A stretch of DNA of 64,000 nt from Sedimentisphaerales bacterium (lineage in GTDB: Bacteria > Planctomycetota > Phycisphaerae > Sedimentisphaerales > SM23-30), in the NCBI GenBank assembly GCA_963666285.1, contig OY762711.1; one strand, given 5' to 3'. The position numbers and the translations under genes are program-made. Positions 24,486 through 27,890 of this stretch are shown piece after piece (within the stretch, counting starts at the first letter, position 1; the number at the start of each line of letters is the position of its first letter). The notes under the pieces are model-generated. The model was not told the DNA's origin. It saw only the letters and a list, made by a program, of their open reading frames with translations, and did no database searches.

Positions 24486-25171
24486 GTGAAGAATTGCGGT
24501 GTCGCTTCGCGACGGGTAATTGATGGGTGACGGAGGGAGTACGGCATATATACGGGGCAGCGCGGCGGGTGAACGGCGGTGAAAAGGCAAATGGATTTGA
24601 ACGGCGGTGAATTGCGGGCCGCGGACAGTATACGGCGGGACGTTGAATGGGTGCGGCGGTATACGGACGGGGGCGAAGCGGAGACGGGAAGGCAGGTAAA
24701 AAGTAAGAGGTAAGAGGTAAGAGTTGATGTGTCCGCTTCGCGGACAGCTTGTTTTAAACGGCTACGCCGAGCGACGGAAGGTCGCTGGAAAGTTGACAGG
24801 AGAGCAGCTAAAAAGCAAAGAGCTATCAGCGGTGAGTTACGCTAAGTGAAAAATGAATAATGAAAAGTTAAGGTGTCCGCTTCGCGGACGGCATATTTAA
24901 AATGGTGGTGCCGAATGTGCCGAGCTCCGCCTGAGGCGTATTTCATTCTGCCCGGCGTTTGCAGAGGTGAAGGAGGGATTAAAAAACGGAATGAAATTGA
25001 AGGGTGCGGGGATGTTATAACGAGTGCGAGGTGGGGTTAGGAAAGAGGTGCGGCGGGCAGGGAATTTTGCGGGAGTAGTTGTAAGTTGTTGTTTTTGGGT
25101 GTTGGGCGGACCAGACAGGTGCCGTGAAACGGCACCTGAAGTCTGAAGTTTGAAGTCTGAATTCTGAAAAA
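24486..25171. repeat. Cluster of short heptamer-tandem plus hairpin elements
   Basis: GTCGC-TTC-GCGAC (24501), GTCCGC-TTC-GCGGAC (24731, 24875), CAGGTGCCGT-GAA-ACGGCACCTG (25116-25138); 7-nt tandems GTAAGAG x3 and TGAAGTY-like x4. Confidence 0.8.
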
Positions 25172-25308
25172 GATGTCAACCACGAAAATACAATGAAAGC
25201 CAGAATATTCCTGTAGCATGGCTTGTGTTATAATACACAATAATTTTAGCACGAGCTGTCACAGGGACGCTCAAATATTTAACCAATTTTATACGGAGTA
25301 TTCTGGCT

Positions 25309-26355
25309 ATGAAGACTATTATGTCAATTGATTTAGGAAAATTCAAGAGTGTAGTTTGTTTTTATGAGGTAAAAAGCTGTAAGGCTATATATAAGTCGTT
25401 TAAGACTAACCCTCAAGAGCTTCATGACCTGGCAGTATCTCACCCTGCTGATCTTATTGTATTTGAGGCTTGTGATATCATAGGCTGGATTTGTGACCTT
25501 TTTGACACCCTGGAATTAAAATATGAAGTGGCAAATACTAATACCGGCGAATGGTCTGGCAGAAAATTGAAGAAGAAAACAGATAAAAAGGATGCATTTT
25601 GGCTGGCCAAGCGTGCTGCTTTAGGAGATTTATCAACTGTCTATGTTCCTAAAAAGGAAATTCGAGAGAAACGATCTTTAATTAATTATCGCCAGAGCCT
25701 TACAGAACGGATAACTCAGGTAAAAAATACTATTCGTTCTTTATTAAATGCCCAGGCGTATTCGTTGCCGTCAGGCAGAAAGTGCTGGTCTAAGCAGAAT
25801 CTGGAACAGTTAAGAAGTATGGCTATGCCAATGGATAAAGTTAAACCAGATGAGCTCTGGAAAGGCAATCTATGGAGCGAGCTTATATTACTGGAACAAT
25901 TAACAGACGCTTTGCAAGTAGTTGAAGATAAACTGGAAGAGTTAAATAGTACTGATGAAAAGGTAAAACTATTACAGACTGTTCCCGGAGTTGGCCCACG
26001 TCTGGCAGAGGCAGTTGCAGCTTATATTGATGATCCACATAGATTTAAGAATTGCAAACAAGTTGGCAGCTATATTGGTATGACACCGCGTCAGTACCAA
26101 TCAGGTAATACAGACCGTCATGGGCGGATAAGTAAATATGGCAATAGGTTATTGCGAGCATTACTTGTTGAGGTTTGCTGGCTGGGTTTGCGTTGGAATC
26201 CATGGATAAAAGAAACATACGAAAGAATAAAGAGGGGAAGTAAAACTCGTGCAAAAATAGCGATAGTAGCTACAGCCCGACGGTTGTTTGTGCGATTGTG
26301 GGCGATGATGCGAGATGGGACGAGCTGGAAGATGCCTGAATTGCAAGGTGCTTGA
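25309..26355 (+). CDS. IS110-family DEDD recombinase/transposase
   Basis: SIDLGK, FEA, KTDKKDA (DEDD); TVPGVG; YIGMTPRQYQSG (catalytic Ser); GRISKYGN; AIVATARRL. Confidence 0.95.
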   Translation: MKTIMSIDLGKFKSVVCFYEVKSCKAIYKSFKTNPQELHDLAVSHPADLIVFEACDIIGWICDLFDTLELKYEVANTNTGEWSGRKLKKKTDKKDAFWLAKRAALGDLSTVYVPKKEIREKRSLINYRQSLTERITQVKNTIRSLLNAQAYSLPSGRKCWSKQNLEQLRSMAMPMDKVKPDELWKGNLWSELILLEQLTDALQVVEDKLEELNSTDEKVKLLQTVPGVGPRLAEAVAAYIDDPHRFKNCKQVGSYIGMTPRQYQSGNTDRHGRISKYGNRLLRALLVEVCWLGLRWNPWIKETYERIKRGSKTRAKIAIVATARRLFVRLWAMMRDGTSWKMPELQGA

Positions 26356-26399
26356 TAAAAATATAAGTAGAAAAATATAAATATTACCTATGATTTTTC

Positions 26400-26700
26400 C
26401 CGATTGAAATCGATACGGAACCTTGGTCGTGCATTTGGGTTTTGAACCTGACACGAAAATTAAGCCGTATCGCAATATATATAATGGAACCATGGCGTAA
26501 AATACAGCCTCGGACACTCCGGATAGAAAGATGAAACAATCAGGTAAATAATGATTCGCTACGCGAAAATTGTTTTAAATAGGTTTATCGCATAAGGTCA
26601 AAAAGCAAAAAACGAGGCGGTGTAAAACCGCCCCGGCTTCTTGACAACTTGCAACGCTCGGGTTGCTCCTCAGCAGAGCCCTATCCTTTGCAAGATAAAG
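26400..26700 (+). ncRNA. Putative bridge/seek RNA of the IS1111-group element (ends approximate)
   Basis: Stem CGATACGG/CCGTATCG enclosing two 10-nt target-matching segments around an inner hairpin; further hairpins at 26616-26632 and 26648-26694. Confidence 0.75.
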
Positions 26701-27059
26701 GAATTATAGCAAAAATGAATAAAATTAGAAAATTAATGTTGCATTCAGGCTTCATAGAAATTCACGAAAGAACACGAAAAAAATACTGTTGTTCGCAGAA
26801 GCCGCAAAGATCGCAAAGAATATTATTTGACCATGAAGGGAATGCTTTAAATTTAAAATTAAAAATTGAGAATTAAGAATTAAAAAGAACTGAAAAATAC
26901 AAGACTGTGATAAGTGCCAATGATTATAAGGTGGCTAGCTTCAGTCTTCGCCAAAGCTATGGTTCGACAAGAGCGTACGTGATTAATAATTTTGAACCAC
27001 TGATGCACGCGGATGGACACCGATAAGAAAATGTTTAGATAACTTGACGGTAAATTTTA

Positions 27060-27116
27060 CAACCACGAAAATTCACGAAAGAACACGAAAAAAATACTGT
27101 TGCTCGCAGAGGCCGC
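27060..27116. repeat. Empty copy of the IS target repeat (CACGAAA 10-nt period element)
   Basis: CAACCACGAAAATTCACGAAAGAACACGAAAAAAATACTGTTG... equals 25177-25189 joined to 26762-26805, with 2 mismatches. Confidence 0.9.
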
Positions 27117-27119
27117 TGT

Positions 27120-27265
27120 GCGGCAAGTGAAGAACTAAAAGTGAATAGTGAAGAATTGCGGTGTCCTGCACCGTACGGTACAGGACCTTGTTTTAAACGG
27201 CTTCGCCTATCGTCCCTACAGGGTTCTTCATCTTGGAACTCCAAGAGCCAAATAGGGTTGGTTGG
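27120..27265. repeat. ~145-bp structured repeat, copy A
   Basis: Near-identical to 28149-28293; contains GTCCTGCACCG-TA-CGGTACAGGAC hairpin. Confidence 0.92.
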
Positions 27266-27287
27266 AAATGGATTAAGACAGTAAGAG

Positions 27288-27890
27288 TCAAAGATATTCA
27301 GAAATATCAAAACTGTCTTTTGAATTAGCAATTAAATGATGATTATCATTGCCTAACATAACTGCAATAATGATATCATCGATAAGAATAATTCTCATTT
27401 GATTGTCATAAATATCTAAAATTGCCCGTTCTCTTATCGTATTTAATCGATTATTATCAATATCTAATTCTTGAAGATTGTTAAAGGTACCCATTGCAAG
27501 ATTGTATAGCATCATAAAAAGAGAAAAAGTAGAAAATACCAAATCTTCATTGTGCCATTCAATTGGTTCACTACTAGTTGCAATTTGGACAATTGGGTCA
27601 TCTTCTTTAAGCCGTGCAATCTCAACACCCCATAAAACAACTCCTTGGTTTTCTTCGGCAAATACTAACCTATCATTTTCTATATACCATTCTTCAGGAG
27701 ACAATATCTTATTAAAAGACTCTGTGCATTCAAAAGTGTTTGCATATTTTCTATAAAAATCTTTAATAGATATTGGTAAATTCACATTAAGACTTTTAGA
27801 ATATTTATCAATAACCTGTGCCTTATAGCCTTCAGTTAAAGAAATTCCAACTTTATTAAGTATATGCCCGTGTTCCATTATTTTTTCCAT
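27288..27890 (-). CDS. Putative orphan immunity protein (SMI1/KNR4-like)
   Basis: LNVNLPISIKDFY...LVFAEENQGVVLWG...DDPIV pattern; AT-rich; in a toxin locus. Confidence 0.65.
   Translation of the reverse strand: MEKIMEHGHILNKVGISLTEGYKAQVIDKYSKSLNVNLPISIKDFYRKYANTFECTESFNKILSPEEWYIENDRLVFAEENQGVVLWGVEIARLKEDDPIVQIATSSEPIEWHNEDLVFSTFSLFMMLYNLAMGTFNNLQELDIDNNRLNTIRERAILDIYDNQMRIILIDDIIIAVMLGNDNHHLIANSKDSFDISEYL

Follow-up and report, generated by a model that had tools for sequence, protein, structure and literature searches.

A predicted seekRNA target-binding arm 3′ of the recombinase gene in an IS1111-type element of the IS110 family

The stretch at 26403-26476 of the window, the 64,000-nucleotide piece of DNA analyzed here, is very probably the target-binding arm of the seekRNA (bridge RNA) of an IS1111-type element of the IS110 family, located 3′ of the recombinase gene. 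The kind of system is already known, its class having been described in 2024. In the ~1.57-kb element, subterminal inverted repeats enclose a recombinase gene and the long non-coding region 3′ of it; the element is present as nine near-identical full copies (98-99% identity) in the window's genome (6.35 Mb, 4 contigs). The initial annotation had marked these 74 nt as the guide loop of the recombinase; they probably do form the target-binding arm, but they make up only part of a predicted RNA of ~140 nt (26402-26541, plus strand) that is closed by a helix we call P0.

The recombinase gene tnp (25309-26355, plus strand) encodes a DEDD recombinase of 348 aa, and its frame is open in all nine copies. 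The N-terminal DEDD/RuvC-like and the C-terminal Transposase_20 domains were matched by PF01548 (51.7 bits) and PF02371 (93 bits), respectively, and the NCBIfam model NF033542, 'IS110 family RNA-guided transposase', scored 213.5 bits against a cutoff of 140. These profile matches support the assignment of tnp to the IS110-family RNA-guided transposases and, together with the IS1111-type layout of the element, bear out the recombinase class first proposed for this locus. In an alignment of 21 proteins (tnp and 20 homologs with 53-91% identity), D8, E53, D92 and D95 as well as S265-G266 were invariant, and we take these to be the catalytic residues, with roles known from the literature. The segment GMTPRQYQSG of tnp aligned with GLTPRRYESG, the serine motif (G--P----SG) of the solved ISCro4 transposase; the likeness to the ISCro4 and IS621 transposases in PDB is limited to the C-terminal domain. 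The closest protein was 92% identical and the closest named one, from a Sedimentisphaerales MAG, 73%, and the best relative in the plasmid collection (42% identical, Acaryochloris) is annotated only as 'IS110 family transposase'. A single-protein scan of the genome contigs yielded just two distant relatives (28-32% identity), which were set aside. The same genome also carries a second, distant IS110-family transposase gene (C1:1589823-1590821, 36% identical). With 348 aa, tnp falls within the range of 330-350 aa reported for IS1111 transposases (PMC11187229).

The insertion sequence proper (~1568 bp, 25190-26757, plus strand) lies between two copies of AAAT, and the sequence leaves the crossover free to fall anywhere within AAAT. 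Directly after the left flank, ACAATGAAAGCC follows in all nine copies, and the right end reads ...GGCTTCATAG in each of them, after which AAAT or a slightly different sequence comes next. The left subterminal inverted repeat ATGAAAGCCAGAAT (25193-25206, plus strand) and the right one ATTCAGGCTTCAT (26743-26755, plus strand) correspond over 13 bp with a one-base indel and are situated 3 and 2 nt inward from the AAAT copies; both motifs were found in 13 of 13 representatives, the window counted. The right repeat has the consensus ATTCTGGCTTCAT. Its position 26747 is A in the window copy only (one of nine) and T in the other eight as well as in the collapsed contigs described below, and written with both variants the repeat reads ATTC(T/A)GGCTTCAT (26743-55). 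The pair was absent from the output of an automated repeat search, which missed it because of the one-base indel and the private mutation of the window copy.

At 13 bp, the subterminal repeats are within the 7-17 bp that characterize IS1111 elements, and the longer non-coding region lies, again as in IS1111, 3′ of tnp (~405 nt vs ~119 nt on the 5′ side). Insertion is both site- and orientation-specific, with the same left flank and the same orientation to the target in all nine copies and at most 4 nt (AAAT) duplicated; as is typical of IS110 elements, none of the nine shows long target duplications or terminal inverted repeats. With every testable defining feature of IS110 and IS1111 present, the layout, the repeats and the protein length point to an element of the IS1111 type. 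Contigs assembled from three DNA runs over 24700-27300 break at the element ends, and one collapsed high-depth contig covers 25177-26760. The joint between right and left end that a circle would produce was not among the contigs of these runs over that interval; contigs drop rare forms, and its absence therefore carries no information on excision. Among the public sequencing runs, none from RNA was listed as containing the element.

All nine copies reside at sites resembling ...CCACGAAAAT followed by TCACGAAAG. The left flank ends in ...CCACGAAAAT in every copy, and the left target arm with the left AAAT copy (CACGAAAAT, 25181-25189, plus strand, AAAT at 25186-25189) is identical throughout. 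On the other side, the right AAAT copy (26758-61) and the right target arm TCACGA (26762-67) occupy 26758-26767 of the plus strand; the right flank is AAAT plus TCACGAAAG in seven copies (with an additional A in two of these) and reads ACACAAAAAT and ACACGAAAGG in the other two. Uninterrupted sites were found as well: a loose pattern, CACGAAA(A)TTCACGAAAG, occurs nine times in the genome, and at five of these nine sites the exact unoccupied 15-mer target CACGAAAATTCACGA is present. One of the five is inside the window, where an unoccupied target copy, AACCACGAAAATTCACGAAAGAAC (27061-27084, plus strand), lies 300 bp downstream of the element. The empty target quoted in the initial annotation is therefore real.

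The target is part of a direct repeat of three units, CCACGAAAAT TCACGAAAG AACACGAAAAA, and corresponds to the point where the first unit meets the second; triple CACGAA arrays number 13 in the genome. The intergenic DNA at 24690-25170, 26760-26830 and 27064-27093 is composed of short units repeated about three times each (GTAAGAG, CTGAAGT, CACGAAA and CGCAAAG), some of which are followed by the palindrome GTCCGCTTCGCGGAC, of which the genome has 13 occurrences and the window two (24731 and 24875). Three relatives from other genomes (L085, L086 and L088) land between units of similar triple repeats or, beside a similar palindrome, at the junction of AATTAAGAA and GGTGTCCGG. Element copies are clustered, two of them 477 bp apart (C1:714500-718111) and two more within 6 kb of each other (C1:909038-916638), with empty targets nearby, which fits insertion into local arrays of the target repeat. 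The ninth copy (C1, minus strand) is an off-consensus insertion that has the same 22-bp sequence, atctacaacagtagaaatttaa, on both sides and is placed inside a different tandem repeat.

The predicted RNA was delineated on the plus strand by comparison of 13 sequences. Helix P0 is formed by GATTG (26402-06) and CAATC (26537-41); it appears in the minimum-energy fold of 13 of 13 members of the set, with 92% of the cells paired, and a U-A to C-G exchange was seen in five sequences. Within it, the target arm (26411-26472) is built on the stem P1, in which CGATACGG (26411-18) pairs with CCGTATCG (26465-72), and which encloses P1b, CTTG (26422-25) with TAAG (26461-64), where 100% of the cells are paired and three of the four pairs have changed on both sides. 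The loop inside P1b presents two segments flanking an inner hairpin. The first, here called T (TCGTGCATTT, 26427-26436), is complementary to the top strand of AAAT plus TCACGA at 9 of 10 positions, with C26432 facing T26762. The hairpin P2 (26437-26449) consists of GGGTT and AACCT with the loop TTG, is paired in 100% of the cells across the 13 sequences and is extended by an invariant U26436·G26450 pair. The second segment, B (CACGAAAAT, 26452-26460), repeats the top strand of the left arm plus core and would pair with the bottom strand. A junction strand (26473-26484) leads from P1 to P3 and includes the candidate right-donor guide UAUA (26478-81). The second arm (26485-26521) is held by P3, TGGA (26485-88) with TCCG (26518-21), which encloses a variable hairpin; 98% of its cells are paired, and three of the four pairs have changed on both sides.

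Taken over the four aligned helices (P0, P1b, P2 and P3), 97.4% of 234 cells form standard pairs, compared with 19-44% when the same structure was slid by 1-3 columns, and 9 of the 18 pairs have changed on both sides among the 13 sequences. In single-sequence folds, whose dot-brackets were read by eye, P0 and P2 were each recovered in all 13 sequences and P1, the variable outer stem, in 12; the relative G017 folds differently. The placement of two segments in the internal loop of a conserved RNA scaffold, as envisaged at the outset, is hence borne out by covariation, and the sequences first reported for both strands of P1, for T, for the inner hairpin and for the second segment in its ten-base form (CACGAAAATT, 26452-61) are all present at those positions.

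Throughout the 13 sequences, three scaffold pairs are of the G·U or U·G type, and there are additional G·U variants. On the other strand the invariant pairs would be A·C, which fits an RNA read from the plus strand. All 13 sequences share T26461, which forms a G·U pair with G26425, and T26436 is likewise an invariant U·G partner. As invariant pairing partners, both bases are structural, and the match of the second segment, originally counted as 10/10, is 9/9: its agreement with the left arm plus core stands, but its tenth base, T26461, belongs to the scaffold.

The interval 26399-26641 is invariant among the nine copies, and the whole predicted guide RNA is identical in all of them. Searches of 24900-27100 on both strands against Rfam 15 gave no match at E values up to 1, ARAGORN found no tRNA or tmRNA, and a whole-element search of this genome found no standalone copy of the 26402-26541 module beyond the nine elements. 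A terminator-like hairpin followed by a T-run is located on the minus strand inside the element (26613-26635), and by eye a similar hairpin is in the same place in the relatives G098 and L083; it could stop antisense transcription that enters from the right flank. This hairpin is part of a block of ~150 nt (26545-26700), situated between the guide RNA and the right end, that is conserved in the window element, G098 and L083 but missing from the other relatives.

Seen in isolation, the hairpin might play a common structural or regulatory part in the tnp transcript, for instance as a 3′ stabilizer or an attenuator, its likeness to the target having arisen by chance with the help of an A-rich, repetitive target. 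The 74-nt stretch folds at -22.5 kcal/mol (z = -3.0), and its minimum-energy fold speaks for such a reading in that it is a plain long hairpin in which TCGTG pairs with CACGA, i.e., the guide segments pair with each other. Since CACGA is directly repeated in the two target arms, the segments are mutually complementary, which makes their two matches partly redundant and not fully independent. To measure the contribution of chance, we shuffled the 404-nt 3′ non-coding region 5000 times with its dinucleotides preserved. A top-strand 10-mer across the core was matched exactly in 52 of these shuffles, and a bottom-strand 10-mer across the core, with at most one mismatch, in 514, a frequency that on its own would again favor coincidence, but both matches in the observed order within 40 nt were obtained only once (1/5000). 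The guide-target match exceeds chance. Moreover, no T-run follows the stem and no plus-strand terminator was called there, and the guide segments of relatives, described next, follow the flanks of those elements while the stems are kept. We consider a fortuitous match in an ordinary transcript element very improbable.

Across the nine copies, B agrees with the left junction at 9 of 9 positions in every case, and T agrees with the right flank at 9 of 10 positions in seven copies and at 8 of 10 in two; the agreement of 9/10 initially given for the first segment against the bottom strand of core plus right arm was reproduced. For a wider comparison, a protein search covered 201 genomes of the same order; at E ≤ 1e-20, 38 of them, including that of the window, contained a match. 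From these, 12 elements with 46-66% protein identity were taken from 11 genomes, with extra copies in multi-copy genomes fixing the ends. A homologous module was found in the 3′ non-coding region of all 13 representatives. In the relatives, B, on the 3′ side of the inner hairpin, repeats the element's own left flank, and T, on the 5′ side, corresponds to the right flank in reverse complement. The relative G098, whose protein is 66% identical, offers a natural re-targeting pair: P1 is nearly unchanged, B is CGTGAAGAT and the left flank is CCGTGAAGAT. Similarly, the reverse complement of T in G017 and its right flank are both AGGATCGACA, and B and the left flank of G113 are both TTGCGAGAA.

When each of eight target classes was represented by a single element, guide and flank matched at 134 of 152 positions, and 14,833 derangements of the guide-flank pairing gave a mean of 73.4 and a maximum of 93. 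A metagenome scan added 80 loci; strict patterns recognized the left-end motif in 21 of them and the right-end motif in 48, and they picked up the target loop in 19; the five closest relatives (L083-L086 and L088) were analyzed, and the other 75 loci, unparsed by the strict patterns, were set aside. On average, B matched the left junction at 8.5 of 9 positions in matched pairs (18 elements) vs 5.5 in cross pairs, and T matched the right flank at 7.7 of 10 positions (17 elements) vs 5.2. The T segment is at chance level (4-5/10) in three of the five metagenomic relatives (L083, L084 and L088) and reaches only 7/10 in G098 and G129a. The alignment of homologous 3′ ends that had been suggested as a check on the initial annotation thus shows the segments covarying with the flanks (134/152), with the exception of T in the three metagenomic relatives named. 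This comparison supports the view that the guide segments change together with each relative's flanks while the scaffold is kept.

A different account would have the segments act as DNA: the recombinase would bind them as a partial target carried inside the element, which might serve as a decoy, confer immunity or offer another site for recombination. CACGAAAATT is indeed a literal duplex copy of the left arm plus core; however, the other segment is inverted, so that no duplex target is rebuilt, and the three scaffold pairs that are G·U in 13 of 13 sequences are stable only in plus-strand RNA or as a single strand. The published IS1111 systems, as presented in PMC11187229, use RNA. A function of the segments as DNA is therefore scarcely credible to us, and we retain a guide RNA as the probable product of this region.

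The single mismatch between T and the target had been taken to predict a preferred target, CACGAAAAT-G-CACGA. The genome lends this prediction no support: the sequence is found nowhere in it (0 occurrences), all nine insertions have T or A at that position, and the mismatches of the relatives are scattered. The window element and G129b also raised the idea that a base directly following the core is conserved as unpaired, which was rejected because the other relatives have their mismatches at scattered positions.

A minor but real possibility is that this reading is right for the family while the window copy itself is impaired, in which case 'apparently intact', the term used for the recombinase in the initial annotation, would be too strong. 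Of the nine, only the window copy shows the T>A change in the right subterminal repeat (26747), and further substitutions close to the 3′ end of tnp (26289, 26292, 26322, 26325 and 26329) are likewise found in no other copy; the collapsed contigs show the majority letters. Against impairment, its tnp frame is open and 99% identical to the other copies, its guide RNA is the same as in all of them, and RNA and protein from the other eight copies could act in trans. The term holds for the open reading frame and the RNA but not for the right repeat of the window copy, with its private change.

Beyond the target arm, the predicted RNA contains stretches that may read the donor. ATAGAAA (26523-26529, plus strand), a putative left-donor guide, is a copy of the right end plus core (26754-26760), and the three bases after ATAG track the right junction of each element in four variants (AAA, AAG, AGG or GAG). 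This partly supports the idea that a second module, which copies the element's right end, serves as a donor-reading module. For the left end, the sole candidate partner is the tentative right-donor guide UAUA (26478-81), which is complementary to TACA (25189-92) at 3 of 4 positions, and in a by-eye comparison over four left-end variants the UAUA-type stretch fits the bases just before the left repeat at 3-4 of 4 positions, which hints only faintly at such a role. The core had been put at up to 4 nt (AAAT); the 4-nt duplication does bound it in this way, but its position inside AAAT cannot be fixed from the sequence. The window junctions fit equally well with an element that begins with ATACAATG and was inserted in a three-A target variant, and this variant accounts for four of the nine empty sites. 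In the relative L086, for which an uninterrupted target copy is on the same contig, the last AT of B seems to correspond to the first two bases of the element and not to the target, and in the window element too B may read less of the target at the core than its match suggests.

The 5′ leader (25198-25308, plus strand) can form a long-range pairing between 25198-25211, which belongs to the left-end repeat sequence, and 25295-25308 that covers the Shine-Dalgarno sequence GGAG (25295-98) just before the tnp start codon, and the same pairing, made of different sequences, was present in the minimum-energy fold of 13 of 13 relatives. A TGnTATAAT motif (25226-25234) lies between the two pairing strands; transcripts starting there would escape the pairing, and read-through transcripts would not. 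The leader may thereby combine promoter and translation-control roles, an arrangement that resembles the classical protection of insertion sequences against outside transcription. At the other end, TTGCAT (26739-44) is followed by a 16-nt spacer up to 26761 (26739-26761, plus strand), and on circularization T26761 would join ACAAT (25190-94) to give TACAAT. TTGCAT-16 nt-TACAAT is a conceivable promoter at the circle junction, and the analogous junction of G098 would read TTGACC-N17-TATCAT.

By analogy with what is described for ISEc11 and its relatives (PMC11187229) and for IS621 (PMC11208160, PMC13626964, PMC13604230), a mechanism can be drawn for the element. It would be excised as a circle, and the joined ends would form a promoter, from which, mainly, the RNA would be transcribed together with tnp. 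The RNA would then bind the DEDD recombinase, its internal loop would pair with both strands of CACGAAAAT and the adjoining TCACGA, and the second module, with ATAGAAA at 26523-29, would read the element's own right end. Strand exchange within the AAAT core would finally insert the circle in one orientation. In this scheme, transcription, protein binding, recombination chemistry, the exact core and the donor-reading segments are inferred.

We also considered whether the RNA of this clade departs from the published designs in three respects at once, a joint claim to which we give little credence. The outer helix GAUUG/CAAUC may close a three-way junction, in which case the donor would be read by junction strands and not by a second internal loop. 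The elements may specialize on tandem direct repeats, with complementary guides that close into a masking hairpin and are opened only by the recombinase or the target. Finally, the 3′ guide may use its last two bases, in the manner of a handshake guide, to read the first bases of the element and not the target.

The known mechanism is unchanged by this finding. What it adds is a well-documented natural RNA-guided recombinase from a little-studied phylum (Planctomycetota-like), and it helps to annotate the repeat-rich intergenic regions of these genomes. IS1111-type seekRNA systems are far less studied than IS621, and nine insertions, empty sites and relatives that re-aim one scaffold are raw material for engineering them.

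Among known systems, the element is closest in organization to the IS1111 seekRNA elements ISEc11, ISPa11, ISKpn4 and ISPst6 described by Siddiquee et al. 2024 (PMC11187229), with which it shares, as they are presented there, a recombinase of 330-350 aa (348 here), subterminal inverted repeats and a long non-coding region 3′ of tnp. According to the same source, IS1111 seekRNAs lie 3′ of tnp and carry two short segments that match both target strands and overlap at the insertion point, the top-strand match being 5′ of the bottom-strand match. Bridge RNAs have also been predicted in the right end of IS1111 elements by Durrant et al. (PMC11208160). Like ISPa11, which is reported to target REP sequences, the window element inserts within a repeated intergenic sequence, and its relation to G098, with the stem kept and the guides changed, mirrors that of ISEc11 to ISXne4 (both PMC11187229). 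Unlike the four elements named, it belongs to another host lineage, targets the unit boundary in a triple CACGAAA repeat and is known here from sequence alone. With IS621 and ISCro4, in the descriptions of PMC11208160 and PMC11208158, it has in common a DEDD plus Ser recombinase and, as proposed here, a circle-junction promoter, and perhaps also a single RNA that recognizes both strands of the target as well as both strands of the donor, its guides overlapping at the core. In IS621, however, the RNA is placed 5′ of the gene and the bottom-strand-pairing guide comes first (PMC11208160), whereas here the top-strand-complementary segment is 5′, which is the order given for IS1111 seekRNAs and the reverse of IS621 (PMC11187229, PMC11208160). 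The subterminal repeats of IS621 are given as only 2-3 bp (PMC11208160), compared with 13 bp in this element, and the donor-reading strands here seem to lie in the P0-closed three-way junction, unlike the second internal loop of IS621. Finally, ISPpu9 of Pseudomonas putida, with its RNA Ssr9 (PMC12288879), is described as another IS110-family element within repeated extragenic sequences that has a small RNA gene downstream of the transposase; in that account ISPpu9 is accompanied by extra stand-alone copies of the RNA gene, whereas in the window's genome the whole-element search met the module only within the nine elements.
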